From positions 1,302,001 through 1,366,000 of the forward strand of contig OZ361258.1 in assembly GCA_977018835.1 (NCBI GenBank): DNA of 64,000 nt, read 5' to 3'. Shown one piece after another: positions 10,568 through 64,000 of the stretch; position 1 is the stretch's first letter; each line of letters begins with the position of its first letter. Under the pieces are notes generated by a model that saw only the letters and a list, made by a program, of their open reading frames with translations, was not told where the DNA came from and searched no databases. The translations under genes and the position numbers were made by a program. This DNA is from Minutocellus sp. GHC0000111 (taxonomy: Eukaryota).

Positions 10568-11464
10568 TCAAATGTCATCAAGTTCCATACTCAGCTTATC
10601 TTGATCTTCGGGATGCGGTGCGTGTTGATCTAGGCCATCTAGGCTTGTAGCTGGATCGGTGAGTTCCGGGAAAGGTAGAAATAAGATGCCGTTCATTGGG
10701 TCATCATCAGTGGCCGAGGAAGATCCGAAGGGAAGCAGAGACGGGACGTCACCCGTAGGGTTTGGGGTCGATTTATGCCCCTGAGCAAAGGAGTTGCCAA
10801 TGGTACTCGTAGGAGGAAGAGTGCTACCCCTTAGGGTTGGTGCCCATTCATGCCCCTGAGCAAGGGAGTCGAGGTTTGGAGGAGCAAGGAGGGAGGCCAT
10901 AGGAGCCGAGAGCCTCTCATAGGGGAGCAGAGTACATGTAATCACACTGTGAGGCGAGAACAGGTGATCAGCCCTTGAGGCAGCGGCGTCATTCACGTCA
11001 ATCGTCGCTTCGGCCATATTGTTAGGCGGTGAGAGCTGAGCATCTAACACACCATTGATGGGCGATTTGAGCAGAGCCTCGACATCGATTTCCTCCTCGG
11101 CAGCGATGCGAGCTTCTTCCTCATCGGCAGCTTCGCGCTCAGCCGCTTGCTTCTTGAGTTTACGTGTAACGTCGTTGAATCGCTGAAGAATCTTTTGTAT
11201 GGCTTCTTCTTCATTGAAGATAATCCACCCCCCTTCTTTCTTCTTCTTGGCAACAAATCTCGCCGAAAGTTCGCCAATAATATGCGCAGCAATCTCCCGT
11301 TTCCTGGGATGATGCCTGGTTTCCAGGCGGCTGTACTCGTCGAAGTATTGTTCGACGAGGACGAAGTAGCGACGCGTCCCCGTCGTCCAATCGCTTCGTT
11401 GCTTTGATATGACGACATCGTCGTCGAGAACAGGGCCGTTGAGAGGAGTTTTACTTGCTTGCAT
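10568..11464 (-). CDS. Hypothetical protein with a divergent DUF6824-like N-terminal domain
   Basis: DDVV..GTRRYFVLVEQYFDEY..KREIAAHII..ARFV..GWIIFNEEEAIQKILQRF matches the spacing pattern of the diatom-expanded DUF6824 domain. The ORF is intact (298 aa). Confidence 0.6.
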   Translation of the reverse strand: MQASKTPLNGPVLDDDVVISKQRSDWTTGTRRYFVLVEQYFDEYSRLETRHHPRKREIAAHIIGELSARFVAKKKKEGGWIIFNEEEAIQKILQRFNDVTRKLKKQAAEREAADEEEARIAAEEEIDVEALLKSPINGVLDAQLSPPNNMAEATIDVNDAAASRADHLFSPHSVITCTLLPYERLSAPMASLLAPPNLDSLAQGHEWAPTLRGSTLPPTSTIGNSFAQGHKSTPNPTGDVPSLLPFGSSSATDDDPMNGILFLPFPELTDPATSLDGLDQHAPHPEDQDKLSMELDDI

Positions 11465-12464
11465 CTTGCTTGAGTATATCTACGAGTTCGTTCAGGATTC
11501 AAAAGCTTCATATCTATTTCCATGTAGTGTGGAGTGCGGTCAAAAAAGTGAAACATCGATAACAATGGCAAGATGCAGCACGTAAGTACAATGTGAGTTG
11601 TTGGAAAATAAAGAATGCATCGTATATCTTCGCGAGGACACAGATCAGCACGCGGTGCGAGAATCCTACGTCGAGTCACGGATATGCAATTGCATGGCGA
11701 GCCTGAACCGACAAAAATATCAGGAAATGAAAGTAGGTATTCGAAATAAAGCTGGTCGTCACCAGTAGCTTCCGCACACGCCGCGGTAATATCAATCAAA
11801 ATACCATGCACTTACATTGCCATACTACGTAGTATTGCTAATACTTTTTCAAGTCGTCGGTGGGATCCGAGTTTCGTCCGAGCCGAGTGAGTCTCGTCCG
11901 ATGGCGATGGAAACTGAAAAACTGAAACTGTTGGTTGCTTTGAACGTCATTTTGAAACGTCATTTTGTCATATTACAAGTAACCACGACTCAGATTTTTC
12001 GCTTTGAAGAGCTCGCGTTCTTAATCTCACGGAAACAGGATTTCTTCGAGGTCTCAAGTCTGCAAAATAATTTTTCTCTGGTAATCAAGGTCATTTCTGC
12101 TGACTCATTTTACTTTTGACTCGCTCGACTCTACTCTGTTCAGGGATCGCTTCAACGGAAACGGATCGCTTATGACTAATTCTAGCTGTGACGGAGTCTC
12201 GGCTCCGGCATCCGGGTTACCTTGACCAAGGTTTGCAGGCACCTGCCAAAGATCCCAGCTCAAGGCAGGCTAAAATCTAAGCAAGCTGTGACAACAGAGA
12301 AGAAACTGAATGTCGCAAGTGGACGTCCTAAATGGACGTCCACATGTGACAAACAGGCCTTCCTGCTTTGAGCCTCAATCCCACTTGGGCGAACGAAACA
12401 CATCGATCGCGGCTGCAATCAACATGTGGTCGACCAAGCCACAGTCAGACCACCCTCTCCTCTG

Positions 12465-13320
12465 CTAAAAGTAAAAGCAATCAACAACCTTCGCACTAGT
12501 GCACCTGTTCGCTGTCCTCTTTTGTTTTTGGCGGCCCACAATGCGAGATGCCGAAACAACCTCCTCATGGTTTTGCACTCCGAGCTGACCGATCGACGAT
12601 CCAATGGACCCCAAGACTCTGCTGCCCGTGTCTTCTTGCAAGGAGGACACAAGCTCGTCGGACGCGACGAGAAAAAGGTGATGGAGAAAAACATCTGCAA
12701 CAATTTCCTGTTTCCTGGGATGATGTTTGGGTGTCAGACTGTTGTGCTCGTCGAAGCATTGTTCGACGAGGACGAAGCAGCGACGCGTCCCCGTCGTCCA
12801 ATCGCTTCGTTGCTTTGACATGGCGCGACGGGGGGCGTCGTCGTCGCGGCGAACAGGGCCATTTAGAGGAGTTTCACTTGCTTGCATCTCTTGATGAGCA
12901 GATCTGCGCGGATTGAATTGGTTCAGGACTCTCAGGGCCTGCATGCAGTGTCAAGTGCGGCAGCAAAAACAGAAATCGATTACGTGGGCAAACAAATGGA
13001 AAGATCCAGTGTGCATGCAGTGAGAGCAAAAAGAATGCAGCACCACAATTGTTCACGAGGGCACGGATCAGCAAGTGGCTTTTTTTCGTCGAGTCACGGA
13101 GAGATGCAATTGCATGGCGATCCTGCCTGAACCAACAAAAATAAATCAGGAAGTGGGAAAGCAAGAGAGGAAAATGCTGCGCAGAAAGCGATGGCACGCA
13201 GTTTTCCATGAGCTCCCCAGGCGCTGCTGCTGGTGACAATCTTCACTTACATGGTGGTTGTTGCTTTTTCAAGTCGGTGGATCATCGGCAAGCCCTCCGT
13301 TCTTCGTCCGATGCGATGGC
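12465..13320 (-). pseudogene. Degenerate tandem duplicate of the DUF6824-like gene 5' part and its upstream region (copy of ~11280-11910)
   Basis: MQASETPLNGPV..SKQRSDWTTGTRRCFVLVEQCFDEH..HHPRKQEI aligns with MQASKTPLNGPV..SKQRSDWTTGTRRYFVLVEQYFDEY..HHPRKREI. Upstream blocks are shared (tcgagtcacgga, atgcaattgcatggcga). Similarity is lost or frameshifted after ~12690. Confidence 0.85.
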
Positions 13321-13742
13321 GCGCGTGATGGCGTGTGCATCGCAAGGATAAAAATGAGACGGCTGAACGCGGGGGGTCGCGAGGTTTGAGACTTTTTCCT
13401 GACATTACCACAGCGTTTTCGCCGAGCTCTCCATGACGTGGTCCAAAATTGGTGGTAACACTAGTATGAGTTTCTGCCACGTCAGTTCGGGTTGTTCAGG
13501 TTCAAGGATCAGGGCAAAATAGTCGAGCGAGTCGAATAGTAAGCACAAAAAGCGCTTGACCGTTGCTTTTTCATCTGTTGTTGGCGATGCATGCGCCGAG
13601 CCGAACGCAATCATACGAAAGGTACTGACTACTACAATTGTACGTAGCTAGAAAAGGTACAAAGCATGCATGGCATTGCCAAAGCAAAAAGGGCAAGGTG
13701 AAAGTCAAAAGTAGTTTGTAGATTTAGCACCCACCCAATTTC

Positions 13743-25678: not shown

Positions 25679-26020
25679 GACGTGACGAGTGGACGAGTGG
25701 AGGTATCGGTGTGTGGATGTAGGAAGAGATGACCGGAGGAGGAATGAATTGATGGAAAACCAGCGCGTCTTATGCCGTCATCAAATTGAGCACATGCACT
25801 TTCTAATCGTTCCCTGGACGAAGATCAAAAGAGGAGGAGAATACTGACAGCTTCGTCGGTGGAAGGAGAGGTGCACGGCAGCAATCTCTTTGTGCTGTCT
25901 CCTATTATTTGCTTCCACTCTTTGATGCTTGGCGCAGCTCTCGGAGGCAGTTTTTCAGCTTCAGTCCCGGAAAACAAGAGATCAGAATGAGGCTGGCCGG
26001 CGCACGGTTTGCGAGAAACT

Positions 26021-27218
26021 TACGAGGTCGCGGACAGCAGTTTCAGGGACCCGGTTTTCGGGTCTATGGGCAAAATCTCATAAAAATCAGCACAAACGCA
26101 CGCAGCAAGCAGCATTTATTTGCTATCGTCCTGTCTTCAAGATGGCGGTGACGGCAGTGCCGACGGCATCCGCTTCACGCAAGGGATAAGCGTGGTATCT
26201 CCAGAACGGGTTGGTCCTTGACCTTGGACCGACTCGGAGACATCGATTTCATCTTCCCATGCCAGCGTCTGTCTGGCCGATTCACCCCATCCATCGCCCC
26301 TCCCGACTTCTGCCAGTTTTTCCGATGACAACCGGTCACCTCCTCCACCTCCCGACCCCACCACCACCTCCCAAATGCATTGATTCAAGTAGCCATATGG
26401 TTTGAGCTCCGATATCGGTCTCCATGGTCCCCATAATGGCGTGTCTCATGCGGTCCGGGTGACCCCGCGCCAAAATCGAGCGGGAGACTTGCCACGAATC
26501 GTAGAGGCATCGATGGTGCCGCTCCGATGGACAAAATAATCAAAGCATGGGATGGAGCTGCCGGACCGACGGGAGCGGCGACATGCTGGCGCATCAGCTG
26601 CGGTGGCAGCAGCAGTAACAGCCATTTGCATTAATATGGTGTTGGATGCAGTATTTTGTGGCAGTAGAGCAACAGTTTGTATGTCGGGTGGGTTGGAAAT
26701 GAGGAAGGTTTCATTGAGTGGCGGGCGCGCCGGGCGGGTGATGATTTTTTTTGGCCCGCTCGATTTTGGCGCGGGGTCACCCGGACCGCATAAGACACGC
26801 CATTGTGGGGACCATGGAGACCGATGTCGGAGCTCAAACCATGTGGCTACTTGAATCAATGCATTTGGGAGGTGGTGGTGGGGTCGGGAGGTGGAGGAGG
26901 TGACCGGTTGTCATCGGAAAAACTGGCAGAAGTCGGGAGGGGCGATGGATGGGGTGAGTCGGCCAGACAGACGCTGGCATGGGAAGATGAAATCGATATC
27001 TCCGAGTCGGTCCAAGGTCAAGGACCAACCCGTTCTGGAGACACCACGCTTATCCCTTGCGTGAAGCGGATGCCGTCGGCACTGCCGTCACCGCCATCTT
27101 GAAGACAGGACGACAGCAAATAAATGCTGCTTGCTGCGTGCGTTTGTGCTGATTTTTATGAGATTTTGCCCAAAGACCCGAAAACCGGGTCCCTGAAACT
27201 GCTGTCCGCGACCTCGTA
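26021..27218. mobile_element. Non-autonomous Tc1/mariner-type foldback element: 462-bp TIRs (26023-26484; 26755-27216), 270-bp spacer, TA target-site duplication
   Basis: TA|CGAGGTCGCGG ... CCGCGACCTCG|TA. The arms are reverse complements with 9 mismatches. No transposase ORF. Confidence 0.9.
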
Positions 27219-28330
27219 CATGTGTTATGCCGCCGCCCCCTTCGCTCTTCGCCGCCTTCGCCTTTGCTTCATCCAACACCATGATTTCCTTCTGATTCGC
27301 CTGCCGCTAACTCGATAGTCCGGCGGACATGCTGCCGGCCGGGGTCTCCGCTCGGCAGGCGTGTCTACCAGTACCAGTAAGGCCGCCTTCTTCCATGATG
27401 TCGTCTCGATCTCCAAGGCTCAACAGCAGCAGAAAAAGTGTCGTGCCTTGGCGGGCACTTGCGACCTGGAGCAGACCCTGACCAAGCTCCAGCCCACTGA
27501 CGTTACCTACTTTTCGTCCCGCTCACTTGAATTTGGATCAAGTCTCGATTTTGGCGCGGGGTCACCCGGACCGCATAAGACACGCCATTGTGGGGACCAT
27601 GGAGACCGATGTCGGAGCTCAAACCATGTGGCTACTTGAATCAATGCATTTGGGAGGTGGTGGTGGGGTCGGGAGGTGGAGGAGGTGACCGGTTGTCATC
27701 GGAAAAACTGGCAGAAGTCGGGAGGGGCGATGGATGGGGTGAGTCGGCCAGACAGACGCTGGCATGGGAAGATGAAATCGATATCTCCGAGTCGGTCCAA
27801 GGTCAAGGACCAACCCGTTCTGGAGACACCACGCTTATCCCTTGCGTGAAGCGGATGCCGTCGGCACTGCCGTCACCGCCATCTTGAAGACAGGACGACA
27901 GCAAATAAATGCTGCTTGCTGCGTGCGTTTGTGCTGATTTTTATGAGATTTTGCCCAAAGACCCGAAAACCGGGTCCCTGAAACTGCTGTCCGCGACCTC
28001 GTACATGTGTTATGCCGCCGCCCCCTTCGCTCTTCGCCGCCTTCGCCTTTGCTTCATCCAACACCATGATTTCCTTCTGATTCGCCTGCCGCTAACTCGA
28101 TAGTCCGGCGGACATGCTGCCGGCCGGGGTCTCCGCTCGGCAGGCGTGTCTACCAGTACCAGTAAGGCCGCCTTCTTCCATGATGTCGTCTCGATCTCCA
28201 AGGCTCAACAGCAGCAGAAAAAGTGTCGTGCCTTGGCGGGCACTTGCGACCTGGAGCAGACCCTGACCAAGCTCCAGCCCACTGACGTTACCTACTTTTC
28301 GTCCCGCTCACTTGAATTTGGATCAAGTCT
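26759..28330. repeat. Tandem duplication of a 785-bp unit (right TIR plus the 5' part of the FG-GAP gene)
   Basis: 26759-27545 recurs at 27544-28330 (offset 785); the copies appear identical. Confidence 0.95.
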
Positions 28331-30625
28331 TGTCATCGACGGCGATTGGATGGTAGCCGGCGCCAACCAGAACTCGACCAGCCCCCCTACGAAGCCATCT
28401 GGATCTACAAGTGGGACGGATCGGATTGGATCTTTCATCAAAAGATCGAGTTTCCCTTGGGTGACAACTGGTCTGGGTTTGGGCGCCATGTCGCCATATA
28501 AGTGGTGACACCATCGCGGTTGGTGACAACGAGAAGCATGTGACGGGGAAAGGCTCTGTGCATGTCTACCGGCTTGACACCAGCGACAACGACACCTGGA
28601 AACAGGAACAGAGAATTCAAAACACGGCTTCTACTGGAGATTGGTACGGCGATCAACTCTGTCTTGAGGGCGACACCCTGATTGTTCCCTCCAGAAACGA
28701 GGCCAGTAATCGAGGTGCGGTTTACGTTTATGAGAGAGACTGCTCCTCTAGCACTTGCTCCTGGGGTCAGACTCAAAAGTTTACTGGGGAGAACTCCAGT
28801 GATGGATTCGGAAGCGGCGCTTTCTTGTCTGGAAACACTCTCTTCCTCGGAGCACCACATGCAGATGACAACGGCCTCACGGATCCCGGGAAAGTGCACT
28901 ACTATACAAGAGCCCAGGCCGGAGGTCAGTGGACTCTCCAGCAGTCGTTCACTCCACCCAGTGCAATGGCAGATGACAGGGCCGGACAAATTCTTGCTTT
29001 CGACGGAGAGACCCTTTTCGTTCCGAGTTGGAGTCGTACAGTTGATGGAGTTTGGGGAGTCGGTTATGGCTGGATCTTCGAGCAAAACTCCAGCGGGGAG
29101 TGGGAGGTGACGCAAGAACTTGAAAATCCCTCAGGGGCGGGTGGCATCTATTATGGAGCCTGGAGACCGTCCATTCGTGGCGATACCCTTGTAATTCCCT
29201 CCAGAGCCGGAATTGACGTATGGAAGAAGACAGGTGGTATTTGGGCCCTGGAAAAGGTCCTACCAAAAAGCGGGGAGGACTGTGAAGCCACAGCATTCCA
29301 CGACGATTCTCTTGTCTTCTCTTGCGAAGCTACCGACGGAAGGAAGGGCGCCATCTACTACCTCACTTGTCCCGATGCATTTACGGCAGCTGCAGCTGAT
29401 AGTAGTAAGTTGCATTCATTTCCTTTCAATTCCATTATTCCTCTCATGTTTCTTTGGCATTCTTCTTACCCATAGTCTACCTCTCCCACTTTGCTATCAT
29501 TATTCATCTATGTCAGGTGATGCCAGTGCCGGTGGCAGTACAGGAGGTGTTGCCACAGGCCCCACCCAAGTCGGAGAGTGGTGGGATCCTACCGCCTGGG
29601 ACGTCACGCCGTACCTGACGGCCACGTGCGCCGCCAGCTTCGTCGAGTGCTGTAACGGCTTCGTCTGCGATGACGACGGCGTCACTCCGACCTCCACCAC
29701 CTGCCAGGCAGCCTGCGCCGGTGACTGCTGCGACAGTAGTGGCGACGGCAGCGGCGCCGATGCCTGCGTCCGCTTCACGGGCAGGGTGTGCAAGGACGGG
29801 TCCTGCACGGGCAATGCCGCCTGCGTCGACGCGTCCATATCGGAGATCATCAACGGCTGCCAGGGCGGCTGGGCCTGCCACTGTCTTTTCGGGAGCGATG
29901 CGCTCCATTTCACGTTTTCCAGCTGCAGCCCTCTCGGCAGCGATGCGCTCCATTTCACGTTTTTCAGCTGCAGCCCTTTCCGCATCGAGAAGTTCTATTT
30001 CCATACGAATTCTCTCGGCCTCAGCCTTCTCGGCGGCTCTACTTGCAGCAACTGATACCGATTCTTCTGCTAGGGTGTGAAGGACATCTTTTTTCCGTTG
30101 TAGCTCAGTGGTTCTATTTGAGGCTACAGATGCCGAATCCTTAGCAATGGCATGCAACATCTTCTTTTTCCTTTGTATTTCAGCGTTTCTTCTGGAAGCT
30201 ACAGACGCAGAATCCTCAGCAAGGGCCTGTAGAGTACTTTTCTTACGGTCGACTTCACGGGCAGGGTGTGCAAGGACGGGTCCTGCACGGGCAATGCCGC
30301 CTGCGTCGACGCGTCCATATCGGAGATCATCAACGGCTGCCAGGGCGGCTGGGCCTGCCACACGGTGGCGCACAACAACGGCGGTGCGCCCGTCCCTCAC
30401 GTGCACAATTCCTGCCGCAGCGTCCAGCAGGCGTGCCAGGGCATGGCCAGCAATGGCGGCAAGGTGGGCAGCGTCGTCAACAGCTGCAACGCCAACCCCG
30501 ACCCCGCGGCGACGGACCACACGACCGTGGACTGGGACGGATCCCTCGTGTACGACAAGCAGTGCTACCGCGTCGGCTGGAAGGGCCGGGTGGGCGACCT
30601 CGTCGATTCCTGCGCGGGCGACAAG
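28146..30625 (+). pseudogene. FG-GAP-repeat beta-propeller plus Cys-rich domain gene, disrupted by frameshifts at ~28385 and ~28499, an insertion at 29882-30252 and truncation at ~30625; intron ~29405-29516
   Basis: FGSSLVIDGDWMVAGA, FGRHVAI/SGDTIAVG, YGDQLCLEGDTLIV..GAVYVYER, FGSGAFLSGNTLFLGAP; then TCQAACAGDCC..ACVRFTGRVCKDGSCTGNAAC. Confidence 0.8.
29881..30257. repeat. 377-bp copy of 44814-45190 (same orientation), flanked by a 109-bp direct duplication (29773-29881 = 30253-30361)
   Basis: Direct alignment at offset 14933; only two mismatches seen, both near the left junction. Confidence 0.95.
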
Positions 30626-43270: not shown

Positions 43271-46200
43271 CTACGAGATCACGCGACGGAAGGTAATGGT
43301 CTTCTTTTTGTTCTTCCTTCTGCCTCCTGCCTTTTTCTTGAGAAGGGATATGATGCTGGCATACGGATAATCCTTCGAGCTAACGTCAACTCCATCAATC
43401 GCGACAACAATGTCGCCAATACTGATAACGCCCAGCTCAAAGGCTTGACTTTTGCCAGATTTGGAAAAATCAGCAACGCAGCAGCCGCATTCCTTTCTAT
43501 TTCCCTTGGAGGTGCCTGTAGCTGTGACGGGATCGAGTACCATGCCGAGAGGCTTGGAAAAGTTAAACTCAACAGAATAAATTTCTTCGGCATCGTCGTC
43601 GGAGTCTTCGATATCTGATAAAGGGCGGCGGAACTTGATTAGTCTGCTCGCAGGTACCTTATCCTGGTTCGCCGTCGGTCTCTTTAGCATGGCAATAGTG
43701 TTGGCATACTCGGAGCCTTCCACGCTTTGTCCATCGATTTCAACAATAATGTCACCAGGTTGGATTTTCCTCGAGTCTCGAGCTTGATTCACCTTGCTCG
43801 CAGAAAAATTGAGCACGTGGCAACCCATTGTTTCTGTGATTGGCTCGAGAATCATGCCGAGGGGCTTTGAAGAGTTGAACTCTACGGTGTACGCTTCCTC
43901 TTCATCTTCTACGGACGATTGGTCATCGGCAGAGGAACGGCGGAACTTGATACTTCGGCCAATGGGTTCCCCATTTGAGCTCATCCTTGGCTTCTTTAAC
44001 AAAGCAATGCTTTGGGAGTACTTGCAGCCGTCTACGTTCTGCCCATCGATCTCGACGATGATATCACCGGGCTTTATTTTTCCTGAATCACGAGCTTGAT
44101 TGATCTTGCTCGCAGAAAACCCGAGCACATGGCATCCCATCTGCAGCACTGACTTTCCCTCCTGAACAAGTGTGATGGGTTCAAGCTTCATTCCCAGTGG
44201 GCCGGGAGCAAAGTGGACTTCAAAGGTCGATTCTGACGAATCATCTGGCTCTGTGATCTTTGGAGCCGATTTCGGTTTGGATCTCGCTACTGCGGCGACG
44301 ACGAATAAGGACGCGTGCACAAATCTTGCCATCGAGCCACTAACCGTATCCTCTTTCTGCTGCTGCTTCTCTACTATTGCCTCTGCCTCATTCTCGCTCG
44401 GAGCCTTTGTTGTTAATGAAGTTATAAGATAGAACAACGCCATTGGTTAGTTGGTGCGAATGAATCAGATGGAATGACAATGTCTCTGTCATAAAGACGA
44501 AATAAGATATATCATTGACTCACCTTGGCGAGGTCCTGCTTGGGTTCCTCTCTTAGTTGCACCTCGATCTCAAGGATCTCGGCATCGCCATATTTCTCGG
44601 CAGTGACGCGTTCCATTTCCAACCTATCAGCCTCTGTCTTCGCGGCAGCCACGGGCTCCATTTCAAGCCTCTTGGCTTCTGCCTCCTCGGCGGCGACGCG
44701 TTCCATTTCAAGCCTGTCAGCCTCTGCCTTCGCGGCAGCCACGCGCTCCATTTCAAGCCTCTTAGCTTCGGCTTCCTCGGCGGCGACGCGCTCCATTTCA
44801 AGCCTATCGGCTTCTGCCTTTTCGGCAGCGATGCGCTCCATTTCACGTTTTCCAGCTGCAGCCCTCTCGGCAGCGATGCGCTCCATTTCACGTTTTTCAG
44901 CTGCAGCCCTTTCCGCATCGAGAAGTTCTATTTCCATACGAATTCTCTCGGCCTCAGCCTTCTCGGCGGCTCTACTTGCAGCAACTGATACCGATTCTTC
45001 TGCTAGGGTGTGAAGGACATCTTTTTTCCGTTGTAGCTCAGTGGTTCTATTTGAGGCTACAGATGCCGAATCCTTAGCAATGGCATGCAACATCTTCTTT
45101 TTCCTTTGTATTTCAGCGTTTCTTCTGGAAGCTACAGACGCAGAATCCTCAGCAAGGGCCTGTAGAGTACTTTTCTTACGGTCGACTTCAAGCTTTGCCT
45201 CAGCTGCCACTTCCGCGGCAACAACTGCCTCCTTTGCCAAGATGTGAAGCGTCTGTCTCTTCTGCTCAAGTTCTTCCTCCTGCACTAGCTCACGTCGTTC
45301 TGCTTGTTCCTCAAGGGCCTTAAAATAAAATATAAAGAGGATTTATTTGGTGGTATGGCGATAGCAATTTGAGAAGAGAGTAAGATATTATTTCATCCAC
45401 AGGCATAAATCATGAAACATTCATCAGCAATGTTATGCGTACCTTGGCTGCTTCCTCGAACTCAGATTCTCTCAGCCGCCGCTCTTTATCTGCTTTCTTT
45501 GCGTCCTCCTCCATTTGTTTCAGCTCATTGAAAATCTGCGAGAGCACTTCCTTCTCATTCTCGATAGCAATGTCCATATCGATCTTGTCTCGGACCTCGT
45601 CTCCTTCGTCGGCCGTTTCTTCGTCATCTGCATCTTGAGACAACAAATGCAAAATACTGTCCTCGTCGATCGAATTGGAGTCCTCGGTCTGTTCAGACTT
45701 CCAATCACGAAGCGTGAGTGACTCGTCCTCGGCGTCTTCAACGTGAGCAATATGCTCCCGGACAACTTCGGGGGTAGCCACAGGCACATACGTGTAGTCG
45801 GCTTCACTCCCATTGCTCTTACATGTCGACTCGTCGGCCTCCTCTTTCGTAAACGACTTGGTGAAGGCTGAATATAGTTGCTGAAAATCATCAAACTGGG
45901 GAATACCACCGGACGCAGAGTCAGAATCACTTTCAAAGGTAATTTCTTTGACGGGTGGTCCATTAAGGATGGGATCAGGCTGAGCCGTGCCGCTGCCAAT
46001 CTTGTTGTCGATGACCAGACTCTGATTGGGATGATCTTCTTTCTTCGACGGAGGGAGTAGATGGCCGACTGACTTTTGAACAAGATGTTTGGCAATGAGC
46101 GACTGGTTCCGGCAGAGACGTGAAACCTCCTCGGCGCCTTCCTCATAGATTGCTCGAACATCGTTTATGGCGCTCTGGAGGAGGACCGGCTCGCGCTGGT

Positions 46201-58809: not shown

Positions 58810-59239
58810 CTTCGCTTCGGCTGATTGAGTAAGGGCCCGGGCGGCCTCTATTGTTTTCCGGGTTCTGAGCCGAGGGCCGATTTAGCCGTGTTCCTGGCGA
58901 CCCGCGGCAAAATTGAAAGTAAAAATATAGGGCGATGAATGTTCATATGTTAGCAGGTTTTGATTGAGAGGGTTGATGCATGGGTAGGGTTGATGTGGCC
59001 TCTCTTTACCAACAAACACCCTTTGGCACTTTGCTGGAATGTTGTTTCTCTCCGCTGCATCTGCTGCACGGGAGTGTTGGTAACAAGTAAGTAAAAGTGA
59101 CTCTGTGAAGAGCCTGCCTGTTTGATGATTCTGTTTGTTTTGTGCCTGGCTAGCTTGCATTTTTGGCTAATAATTTAGGTCTCTGATTAGGTTTGCTCTC
59201 CATGCCGGATTGGCTATTGCTTGTTCGAGTTCTTCTTGG

Positions 59240-60870
59240 CTCATTCGGAACTTTTTACACCAGTCCAACACTGCCTCTGGCGTGTCTCCTTCCTGGCTGG
59301 AGAGAGAGCTAGCTGCATTCCCACGGTGTTTGCTTCGACTCGTGCCACCCACTTGTTCCTTAGTTGAACTTTTTCATATTCATCCCCGTTCTTTTTCAGT
59401 TTCAAGTTTGTCACTCTGTGCAAAGTCATGTTGTGCCCTGTGAAGTAGATGGCTGAGTTGAGACTTGGTGGTGGATGAACTCGGTCGGTGCGCCGGGGTG
59501 GTGGTGCTGCTGCTGCTGCTGGTGTTCTCGCCAAGTGTTGTTGCCCTTGACACTGCCATGTAGAGCAGGCCAGGGTTTCCTGACTCGAACTTTTTGTCTC
59601 CTGGGTCAACAAATACTCTGTCAACTGCGTTTGGCTGTTGGCCTTGGTTCACTGGTCCGGCTGACTGCCCCCTTCTTGGAAGGAAGGTGTGAAGCAAGTG
59701 AGTGTCATTTTGCAAAGGGGAGGGCTAGAGGGCAGAACGTAGCTTTGCAGCACTTGTTCTTGCACATCATTGTCACCATGGGAATCGGCACTACCTGTTG
59801 CATGCTCATGGGGGTGGTAGTTTGGGTGTAGGTGTTGGGAACTGTTGGGTTAGCAAATGGTTGGTGTTTTGGCACATGATGAGGGGGTTTCTGTGATGTC
59901 ACCGTGATGACGCTCATTCCAAGACAGTGGCAACATCCACTGTGATGGAACTCTCACGATTGCATGCAGTGACTTCACTAGTTGCTCACCTTTGGTTTCT
60001 GGGCATCCCATGCTGGGCCACTGTACTGTGGAGAAACTTGACTGTGCAATGTAGCAAGGTTGGTCGCCAGCATTTGGGTTGTCTCCATCGTTGAACACAA
60101 TTTCCTCAACTTCTCCTACACTGTTGTTGTTGTTGTTGTTGAAAAAACAGTCCCCCCACTCAGGCTCAAAGTTGTGGTTTGACAAGCACACCATATGGTC
60201 CCTTTGCTGAGGATTGTTGCGTTAACCGGAAGATTTGGAAAATTAGCTTTGCACACCTTCGCCTTTCCCCTTGTTGACTCCCACCTTGTCTTGATTAGAG
60301 CAACAGGGTTGTTCGCACTTGACACCTCTCTTGCAGCTTGCCCCGCGGCAGTTAAACTCGTTTTTGGACTTTTTGAATGCAAACAAGTGCATGGTTGTGC
60401 CAGTCTTTGTTATGGCATTGACTTCAGTGTTGCTGAAGTTTGCAAGATGGTAGTTCATTAGTTCACTTGCGTCGGCTGGAGTTGACTCCCCCACTCTCAT
60501 TCGACGGAGAATGTCGATGATGATGATGAGCTTTTTCTGGTCGTTTTTTTGCCTCTTGATGGTCCTTAGTGCCATGCATGTTTCTGACAAGTCTAAGAAC
60601 AGTTGTGCACCAGTGGCAGCAACCCCGGTCTTCTGCTGTGACAGGGAGGGTTTTCCACCTAGGACATCAAAGGCCACTTTTTGCGTGTTTGTTGGTGGCG
60701 CGGCAGTTGGATGATGATGATGATGATGATGACGACGTCGTCCACTGTCCCTGAGAGTTCTTCGGCACTGCATGTTTATGTGTGCATGGTGTGATTTAAG
60801 TTCAAAGTGTCGAGTAAGAGACATGGTGAGTGCCTTTGTCATGTAGCAATTTGAAAATGAGTCAAACAAA
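59240..60870 (-). pseudogene. PIF1-like SF1 helicase remnant of the Helitron
   Basis: TGVAA, DILRRMRVGE, VGEVEEIVFNDGDNP, FCPLALPFAK..HTF..GQSAG, NPGLLYMAVSRATTLG. Confidence 0.8.
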
Positions 60871-60979: not shown

Positions 60980-62467
60980 CTCATGATGATCGTTTTCAAT
61001 GTTTCGCGCTCGACAGCGAGAGTTTCATTGCCTTTGCGGGCGTATGCAACGACGTAGTCAGTAACCTCTGCGATATCTTCTGGTGTGGGTTCCCCTTCGT
61101 GACAGTCATATAAGAGGATATTGATGTCGCAATTGCCACGCCAACCTCGCAGTGCATGAAGTGGGGTTTGTATCATCCGGAGACTATTCCGTTTCATTTC
61201 GAGCTTGAGGAAGTCGCGATCGTCTCGGGTAATAGCATGATCCGAGCGCAATTTGAAACCTGGTGTATCGCATTTGTTCTTGGTGGCTTCATATCCCGCG
61301 CCAGCTCGACAGTATCGACATTTTGCCGATGGCTTGTCGGATGAATTCGTTGTTGGTGCCGATGCGTCGCGTTGCGTTTCGTTCTTGTTTCGTCGATGAT
61401 TTCGCATGCAGTAGCTACCGCATTTGTGATGTTGGCACTCGAAGCAGAGCTGCTTTTCATCCTCGCGATAGTCAGATACATCCCCAAGCCTTCTTTTGCT
61501 TGCACCCATGTTTGGAGTTACGTCCCTTGGATTGCGATGGAGAGGAAAGCGAGGTACGTGAGAATTGCAACCTGATCATGATGCGTGTTTGATTGTAAAT
61601 ATGTTTCTCGAACTCACCCATTGTTACCATTTACCGATGATGTCATGCCGAATATTCGTTCTGCCCAATCTCCTACCAATTTGGATTGGTCAGCGTGGCT
61701 TCTACCTCCGTCATTAAGTTCGTCCTGGAGATCCTTTGTTATCTTTTTATTGAGGATAGCGAGAAGATGAAGATGGATCTGACCTCTGCCCTTGGCGAAT
61801 TCGATCCGCCCCCAGTAATGTTCTATGCCGAATACCTCTTTGCCCACGGTATTCAGGAAGTCTTCTGCCCTTTTGATAAAAAATTGCTGTATGACGAGGG
61901 CGTAATCATTGGTGGCTTTGTTTCTATCGGTTCTGTTGTTGGTGAGATCGATTTTGCGGCCATCTCGATATAACACCGTGTTCCATGGACCGTGTTTTGA
62001 CCCTCAGCGATCCATATTCGTTCCTCCAGGAGCCTCAGCATGTCTGGCCAGAAATATTCGGAACAAGAAAGGGTCATGAACAGATCTGGTGGCCCATTCC
62101 CGGCCTCGATATGATGAGATATCCAGGTGTATAATTTGGCACGTTCGGCTCTCCAAAAAGAGTCAGATCCTCGTACTCTTTTACTGTAAAAAATGAGTTT
62201 ACTGACGAAGGATGAGTCGCCGCTTTCGAGCTGTTCTTTGAGCTCGTCCAGTGATTTGGGTGGATCGTAAATGTGGGTATTCACGAAGTACTTCCCGTCG
62301 TCATTGTTTCGGTGTCGCTGAGAATAATTATATGCAAAGAAGCACCAGAGCTTATCTCTCTGAAATCGTCCATCGGACTGTCGAAGAAGATGACGAGCCC
62401 AGTTGGAGGCATCAATGTCTGCCTCGCGATCCATGTCTCGAAAATCCGCAACTCCTCCTGGAAACAT
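60980..62467 (-). pseudogene. Helitron Rep (HUH endonuclease) domain; frameshift at ~61975; intron ~61527-61617
   Basis: FPGG..WARHLL..DGRF, RVRGSDSFW, GPPDLFMTLSC..WPD, YWGRIEFAKGRGQIHLHLL, GWRGNCDI, DYVVAYARKG. Confidence 0.9.
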
Positions 62468-63158
62468 TGACGGTAAGATTCAAGCTGCACTCGTTGCATG
62501 CGGAGCATATTTCATGATGAATGTTCGTCATTCTTGACTCGAATCGAAATATCGGAACAAGTACTTTCTGTTCTGAATAAGAAGCGGATCGGAATGCCTC
62601 TCGGTTGATAGAATAGCGGTCGTCTTTTTGAGTGAACTTGTGCAATTTTTGCCTAGCCGTGGCAATTAATGTCGTTGCTCGCCCTATTAATTCCTTGTAG
62701 TTGGAATCTGACTTAGCGTAAAATGGATCACTGTCACCTAGGTCGACGTCTAGTTCAATAGATTCTTCCCATAATTTTTGGACATGAAGAGCGTCGTAGT
62801 CCCTGAGACGGTCGTGGTAGGGAGGCTTCATGTCTATCCTAGGAAGCTTTTCTCTCTCGGCAGTCCGCTTCCTGGCACTCCTGATGTTTTGTAGTCGCCT
62901 CTTTTCGCTTTTTGACACCTAAAAGGAACACAGTTGTAAATCGGCATCACATTTGTTCAGGTGAGTAATTGGTTGAGGCGACGCAATTCCGGGACAATGG
63001 CATTGGACACTATCATGGAATTAGTGCTTGATGATGCATATTAGTGGTTCACATTACAATTACCTGGTTTTTCTTCCTCTTTAGGTTGCCGGAGCAAGGC
63101 ACGCAAATGCCACCGCGAAGATGAACGTTGACAGTGACGGTGGACCCATTGTGCATGC

Positions 63159-63737
63159 CTAATTGCCAAACTTTTGCATTGGAGTACTCTCGAGGAGCTT
63201 TGAACTGCACGATGTGTACATTTCACTTGCAGGTATCGGCAATTTTTCTGACACCAGGGTGACAATCATTTTGTGAAGAGACTTGGCAGTGTCATTAATG
63301 TAGACACAGGTTTGGGTAACAGACCCATCAGGACACTTGATGAATATCACCCATTTGTGGTTCTTCTGGTTCACCACATGGATTGTGCAACCGTCATGCA
63401 TGCCCAAGCAATGCAAGGGAACATCAATGTCGCAATGGTTGCCGCGGAAAAGGGAACCAATGCACCAACAGTCCTCGTCCCAGTCGTCGTCTTTGAGCTC
63501 ACCCTCAATTTCCTTGTAAGCAGCTTCCTCAATGATCCCCCACAGATTGACACCTTTGAGTTCTCGTGAAACTTCCAATTTCAGAACGCATGGCGGTGTC
63601 CGACACCTGTAAAATGGCTGGAGTTCTTTCTCTTTCCCAAAAGGGACTAGGCCTTCGCACGTGACGTGACGAGGAATTATGACATCAATGTCCCACATGG
63701 GCTTGAGCACAGCCTGGAGATCAGTCTTGATCCACAC
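63159..63737 (-). pseudogene. Degenerate ubiquitin-like domain(s) in the Helitron 5' region
   Basis: IFIKCPDGSVTQTCVYINDTAKSLHKMI..EKLPIPASEMYTSCSSKLLE aligns by eye with the ubiquitin pattern IFVKTLTG..VEPSDT..EGIPPDQQRLIFAGKQLE. Confidence 0.5.
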
Positions 63738-64000
63738 CTACCTTGCAGGGTGACCTAAGGGTGGTTTTTGACCTCATTTTTTTGCAGTGCCTCTTGACAG
63801 GCCTCGCCTCACTGCGGCAGACAGACTTGCCATTGTCAGTGTTTCTGGCGGCACAAGTGACACCTGAAATGACTTCATCGGAACATCAAGCGGGATAAAC
63901 TTTAGTGCACACACCACATGGGGTCAGTGATGAGGGGCTCTCCTTTCACCACCACCTTGCCCTTGTTGTCTAAACTGGCACTTGGAGTCACTTCCAGAGC

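Follow-up and report, generated by a model that had tools for sequence, protein, structure and literature searches.

Mutation directed at TpA steps and turning A:T into G:C has so far been described in one preprint, for viral blocks of one rhizarian alga. In this organism, Bigelowiella natans, two integrated viral regions gained 231 new mutations, of which 230 were A>G/T>C changes, all at TpA, and the TpA mutation rate, measured directly, was ~1000 times background; DDE and reverse-transcriptase domains are enriched in TpA-poor coding sequences, and an ADAT2-like deaminase is proposed, not shown (Mettrop et al., bioRxiv 10.64898/2026.01.13.699255). The baseline mutation spectrum of the diatom P. 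tricornutum is biased from GC to AT (PMC6604790). Here we describe, in a window of 64,000 nucleotides (the whole stretch of DNA analysed), an inverted-repeat element whose arm differences are probably genuine TpA-to-TpG/CpA transitions running through a high-copy family; judging from sequence comparisons, the agent would likely belong to the host and mutate A:T pairs at the TpA steps of repeated sequences, with adenine deamination as its most probable chemistry.

A TA-flanked inverted-repeat element and the differences between its arms

The element spans 26023..27216 of the window, is 1194 bp long and, as read from the sequence, has TA at either side. Its parts and the duplication adjoining it are as follows:

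26021..26022, no strand, left TA target-site duplication (sequence, and family copies with other flanks at the same TA)
26023..26484, plus strand, left terminal inverted repeat, 462 bp (arm alignment; 10 TpA)
26267..26274, plus strand, 4-bp tandem duplication, present in both window arms and absent in 52-98% of family contig depth
26485..26754, no strand, interior, 270 bp, non-coding (8 TpA kept in the window copy)
26755..27216, minus strand, right terminal inverted repeat, 462 bp (arm alignment; 6 TpA)
27217..27218, no strand, right TA target-site duplication (sequence; loose ends behind 27218 in three contigs of run X16)
27544..28330, plus strand, tandem copy of 26759-27545, 787 bp, 100% identical (right arm plus flank)

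A Pfam search of the longest frame, of 154 residues and spanning the element interior, gave no match, and no transposase was recognised by it. Among public contigs aligned to the left arm, five of run X16 have loose ends before 26021, and further family copies meet new flanks at TA. Depth inside the element reaches 17443 for single contigs, compared to 169 for a flank contig (run X18), contig depth being neither an exact copy number nor an allele count; the family is clearly large and high-copy. Given the TA target, the terminal inverted repeats, the lack of coding capacity and the high copy number, the element is likely a non-autonomous Tc1/mariner-type DNA transposon with long arms. It resembles non-autonomous derivatives of Tc1/mariner elements (TA-target MITEs and foldback forms with long arms) in its TA duplication, inverted repeats, non-coding character and high copy number, and exceeds typical MITEs in its 462-bp arms and 1194-bp length. 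Exact scans with the 20-base arm end revealed no autonomous partner: they returned no match in viral contigs and two in metagenome contigs, 20 and 23 bases long, both without TA or further likeness and hence chance-like.

The element lies between a 785-residue frame (minus strand) on one side and an FG-GAP gene on the other, and with a TpA observed/expected of 0.42, compared to 0.54 for the whole window, it is mildly TpA-poor. Window genes identified by Pfam are HSF, DUF6824, FG-GAP, CbiX and FabI. Few of the 120 FabI relatives listed have eukaryote names, and those that do are from the diatoms Attheya, Cylindrotheca and a Bacillariaceae species and from the xanthophyte Heterococcus (42-58% identity), the closest hits bearing no name; DUF6824 is typical of diatoms. 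The host is likely a diatom.

A third arm copy, missed in the initial annotation of the window, lies at 27544-28001 within the 787-bp tandem duplication and is identical to the right arm; the duplication adds no independent information on the arm differences. In three runs, 948-nt contigs begin at 27195, with the duplication junction only 351 nt on, an indication that those runs lack the duplication and that it is strain-specific or an artefact, possibly of the assembly.

Aligned without gaps, 26023-26484 and the reverse-complemented 26755-27216 show exactly the nine arm differences first reported, at 26066, 26125, 26197, 26241, 26281, 26396, 26413, 26434 and 26447. Seven are indeed TpA versus TpG/CpA transitions, with TpA in the left arm at 26125, 26197, 26396, 26413 and 26434 and in the right arm at 26241 and 26447; 26066 is TA versus TT, and 26281 is the sole difference away from TpA. 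The right arm thus has TpG/CpA instead of TpA at five sites and TT at one, and the left arm is without TpA at 26241, 26447 and 26443, the loss at 26443 being common to both arms. CpGs are untouched, as had also been noted: 35 are common to the two arms and 0/35 differ.

Twelve sites are TpA in either arm, and eight of these differ. Counted by letters, 8/24 differ at TpA against 1/438 elsewhere (Fisher p 1.3e-10, a value that is partly circular because a differing site helps define the TpA set). TpA transitions make up seven of the eight arm transitions, and under a direction-neutral null free of this circularity, in which 17-18% of all possible arm transitions touch TpA either way, the probability of seven or more of eight is 3e-5 to 5e-5. 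The TpA excess among the arm differences is real and well above chance.

Polarity from the element family and a second duplicate in the window

Polarity is beyond the reach of the arm pair alone, as the initial annotation had recognised, and was supplied by public contigs. The stretch or part of it is contained in 18 of the 21 runs listed, of which six (X1, X2 and X15-X18), all of them contig sets, were compared; X2, the more distant run, was the only one used among the runs with a small word share. Family rows exist for five of the seven sites, 26197 and, outside the seven, 26066 and 26281 being without a family-wide row among the rows listed. Depths below are for contigs on the left arm, which lose rare variants, and are given as other depth over all depth in the order X18, X16, X17 and X2:

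26125, G (non-TpA): 3770/7398, 3292/10415, 0/12217, 0/12.7 (51, 32, 0 and 0%)
26241, T: 14567/14567, 7143/14170, 14239/14239, 64.3/64.3 (non-TpA letter 0, 50, 0 and 0%)
26413, C (non-TpA): 11335/34068, 14691/52203, 10055/23765, 21.5/45.4 (33, 28, 42 and 47%)
26434, C (non-TpA): 5476/46326, 6201/35015, 3365/23276, 0/33.8 (12, 18, 14 and 0%)
26447, T: 20938/35175, 27284/39658, 19252/25672, 24.7/33.8 (non-TpA letter 40, 31, 25 and 27%)

At all five sites with rows the family has TpA as its majority or tied state, in the independent run X2 as well, a majority being in itself no proof of ancestry; ties rather than majorities occur at 26125 in X18, with 51% G, and at 26241 in X16, with 50%. At 26396, T is carried by two high-depth contigs (9263 and 5605), which supports TpA indirectly. 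Both letters of a single TpA vary at 26447/26448 (seen as 26791 T>C), at 26616/26617 and, in X2, at 26632/26633, and TA lies a single step away from either CA or TG, whereas those two are two steps from each other. At 26443, TG in both window arms, the family is mostly TA (60-77% in X16-X18). The direction is therefore TpA to TpG/CpA loss, settled at five of the seven sites. The expectation that TpA is the family state thus held where there are rows, with 26197 lacking one and 26396 supported indirectly, and at those five sites the contigs revealed neither a CpA/TpG consensus nor a consensus error.

Among the 31 substitution places listed inside the element in the organism-A runs, TpA transitions account for 12 of 13 at a depth of at least 1000 compared to 2 of 18 below it (p 7.6e-6); the lone non-TpA change among the high-depth variants is within a T run, and the 18 low-depth places are at single-copy depth. 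Five of the eight interior TpAs vary by TpA transition in the family (26537, 26616/26617, 26633, 26652 and 26680), and hence arm pairing is not required. A hairpin-only (ADAR-like) mechanism is accordingly not favoured, given that interior sites vary in the family like arm sites; within the window copy, TpA loss is 9/26 in the arms versus 0/8 in the interior (p 0.08). In X2, TpA transitions are 8 of the 37 differences listed, with TA present in X2 at five and lost in X2 at three, and ordinary substitution dominates at this greater divergence. TpA changes appear to recur independently in many copies of the family.

A second internal control comes from a gene copy in the window:

12697..13155, minus strand, frameshifted copy of a DUF6824 gene (compared with the intact gene at 10571-11479)

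None of its 19 aligned TpAs is kept and nine are now CA/TG, with 21/32 CpGs kept. In the ungapped core CA/TG is found at 5/5 TpAs, compared to 15/156 other letters changed (p 0.003). Three TAC codons of the intact gene are TGC, TGC and CAC in the copy; Tyr occupies those codons in 3/3 cases in homologue P0121 and in 2/3 in P0122, P0123 being unaligned there. This copy bears out what the initial annotation had mentioned, a loss of TpA at other places in the window, and together with the family pool in the public contigs it supports the context-specific mutation claimed there.

None of the flank differences is at TpA, with 0/11 against a paralogous right-flank contig and 0/1 in the left flank, in a comparison of only ~270 flank bases with few TpA. 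The right flank at 27253-27400 is a member of a small gene family, and the paralogous contig differs from it at 18 letters plus a 9-base gap. No fully TpA-erased block was found in the window; its lowest 500-bp intervals (0.08-0.24) are at 12251-13500, with further low ones in GC-rich coding sequence. The remaining repeats examined are without the signal: 29881-30257 and 44814-45190 differ at two places, and changes of mixed type separate the PDZ repeats and the 45-bp coding repeats.

Some further features of the window were observed. A 377-bp piece that is 99.5% identical to 44814-45190 lies within 29773-30361, between 109-bp identical direct repeats (29773-29881 and 30253-30361), and breaks a Cys-rich frame, being a templated insertion or an assembly artefact. 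Charged Ala/Glu-rich runs are encoded by the 45-bp repeats (44.5-45.0 kb; 44515-45342) and by the stretch 11100-11170 of DUF6824, with a longer run in P0121 and P0122. At 59000-60800 and 63000-64000, CpG (0.43 and 0.49) and TpA (0.37 and 0.36) are both low and CpA/TpG is high (1.43-1.65), a combination of CpG decay and TpA loss that contrasts with the inverted-repeat element; a Helitron-like fragment at 61856-62479, between those stretches, has normal values.

Proposed process, arm history and rival explanations

The TpA context, the TpG and CpA products, the signature in the interior and in the broken gene copy, the direction at five of the seven sites, and the sparing of CpG and of the flank bases compared are direct observations. 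Their likely cause is a process of the host that targets A:T pairs at TpA in repeats; most likely, it would deaminate the adenine of TpA to inosine, for which the next replication would write G. By analogy with B. natans we regard this chemistry as about an even call, TpA being self-complementary, so that a lesion on T is indistinguishable from one on A and an error-prone polymerase would yield the same letters. A broader proposal, tentative and on balance doubtful, is that diatoms may possess a defence by adenine editing, a 'reverse RIP', which would be ongoing, would sense homology or copy number, and would act on single small transposon copies between active genes and on a redundant host gene copy, before and without CpG-methylation decay and sparing the flanks, with the family caught mid-process and TpA-polymorphic.

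Three other sources were considered and rejected. CpG decay as the origin of the TA, CA and TG states is at odds with the 35 intact CpGs and with the lack of any CG state listed at 26447-26448 in the contigs, which lose rare variants; by reasoning, GC-biased conversion alone leaves the TpA context unexplained, and selection against self-insertion into TA targets supplies no mutations.

The rival that survives best concerns where the mutations arose. LTRs are equalised at each insertion and the arms of cut-and-paste transposons are not, and so arm differences can be inherited. The seven changes may therefore have come with the donor, been converted in from the family pool, or resulted from recombination of two insertions, all by the same mutation process acting elsewhere; this is compatible with host mutation at TpA and alters only its place, and we lean slightly towards it. 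Many family copies have what the right arm has at 26125, 26413 and 26434, and these letters may have been inherited or brought in by conversion. All four combinations of T/C at 26413 with A/G at 26443 exist among the two arms and X2 contigs (a depth-based reading), which calls for recurrent mutation or recombination. At the locus, left-flank contigs of X18 and X16 continue beyond the TA into 28 letters that are unlike the element or the right flank and absent from the window; 25963 is G, unlike the window, in all four runs; and the flanks compared have no TpA changes. The right junction is present in 4/4 runs with only 22 element letters, below the 31-letter bridging rule, and the left junction of the window copy was not seen among the contig pieces listed. 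The locus is structurally polymorphic at 25963/26022.

Against this rival, TA is found at both element ends, and the two arms share the 4-bp duplication at 26267-26274 and G at 26443, less expected of two random arms from the pool. The duplication and the G are minority or near-minority states in the family, and the duplication looks derived, a probable marker of arm homogenisation. Since both arms share these two features, mostly absent in family depth, an ancestor of the window copy likely had its arms equalised, from which point they would have diverged almost only at TpA. The assumption that the arms started identical thus stands for the lineage, as equalisation in an ancestor, and not as an automatic consequence of insertion, given that changes may be inherited or converted in; the arm pair is a good control for the lineage, not demonstrably for the locus 26023..27216.

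Repair synthesis takes place both when transposon gaps are mended and during conversion, and there are signs that the arms have been homogenised. During such synthesis between copies, an error-prone Pol eta-like polymerase could write A>G at WA with no base modification, and TA has the WA hotspot on both strands (PMC7884765). We consider this unlikely: the left arm has 22 AA and 27 TT steps, yet all seven A:T/G:C transitions at W-A lie at TA and none is confined to AA/TT, and the changes in B. natans are likewise at TpA only.

Still less probable is symmetric N6-methyladenine at ApT decaying to A>G. It would fit the ApT context of eight of the nine differences, missed in the initial annotation, and TAT at six of the seven TpA transitions, but the TAT excess is non-significant (p 0.10), ApT letters differ at 1/50 outside TpA versus 7/14 inside, and the high-depth variants at 26616, 26617, 26652, 26680 and 26447 are in TpA, not ApT. 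P. tricornutum is, moreover, reported to contain no modified base but 5mC (PMC12695648).

RIP-like C>T at CpA/TpG, which would make TpAs and reverse the polarity, is largely refuted and very improbable. The arms offer 70 CA/TG substrate sites and by themselves carry no polarity, but the majority or tied TpA state at 5/5 sites with rows (in X2 too), the occurrence of TA, CA and TG side by side at single sites, and the conserved Tyr codons gone from the broken DUF6824 copy all oppose it, as does a left-arm TpA/ApT of 11/31 = 0.35 compared to a RIP product index above 1.15 (PMC7882544). That the nine differences are assembly consensus or base-calling errors is scarcely credible, even with an adjoining 787-bp 100% duplication that may be an artefact, as public contigs contain both letters at 26125, 26241, 26413, 26434 and 26447, in one run or more for every site and in two or more for four of them, and the TpA variants are found again in runs of three studies.

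Comparison with known systems

Like RIP in fungi (RID/DIM-2, Ascomycota), the changes in the element family are dinucleotide-specific transitions concentrated in repeats with both repeat members affected, but RIP proceeds by C>T at CpA and creates TpA, whereas the element family loses TpA by A>G/T>C (PMC7882544). They resemble WA mutagenesis by Pol eta in somatic hypermutation in affecting A:T at TA on both strands, and are unlike it in that the AA part of WA is untouched in the arms and no C>T hotspot signature lies alongside (PMC7884765). A report of TpA-directed mutation in diatoms was not found in the open-licence PMC and bioRxiv literature; the words diatom, stramenopile and inverted repeat are absent from the text available of the B. 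natans preprint (bioRxiv 10.64898/2026.01.13.699255), and a preprint on a retrotransposon adenine methyltransferase does not mention diatoms, TpA or deamination.

If the proposed host process is real, TpA-directed mutation would be known from two supergroups and from repeats other than viral ones, and eukaryotes would have a second RIP-like genome-rewriting process, of opposite chemistry. The family would be useful in this regard because the process is partial, with TpA sites still segregating in many copies and CpGs intact, and thus its rate, targeting and enzyme are open to sequencing tests. Divergence between arms or copies would be unusable as a clock for such elements. What the single locus adds is a check on polarity, not a new principle.

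With B. natans the element family shares TpA-confined A:T to G:C transitions with both TpG and CpA products (7/8 arm transitions; 12/13 high-depth variants), running against the bias from GC to AT that is usual. The targets differ: integrated NCLDV/virophage blocks, single-copy and 25-186 kb long, in a chlorarachniophyte, as opposed to a 1.2-kb, high-copy, non-coding DNA transposon among ordinary genes of a likely diatom, TA-flanked, with inverted repeats and no viral-contig match, plus a duplicated host gene; and in the present case the loss is partial and the flank bases compared are untouched. By this analogy, the process is likely of the same kind as in B. natans, and, within the reach of our literature search, both its host group and its type of target are new.
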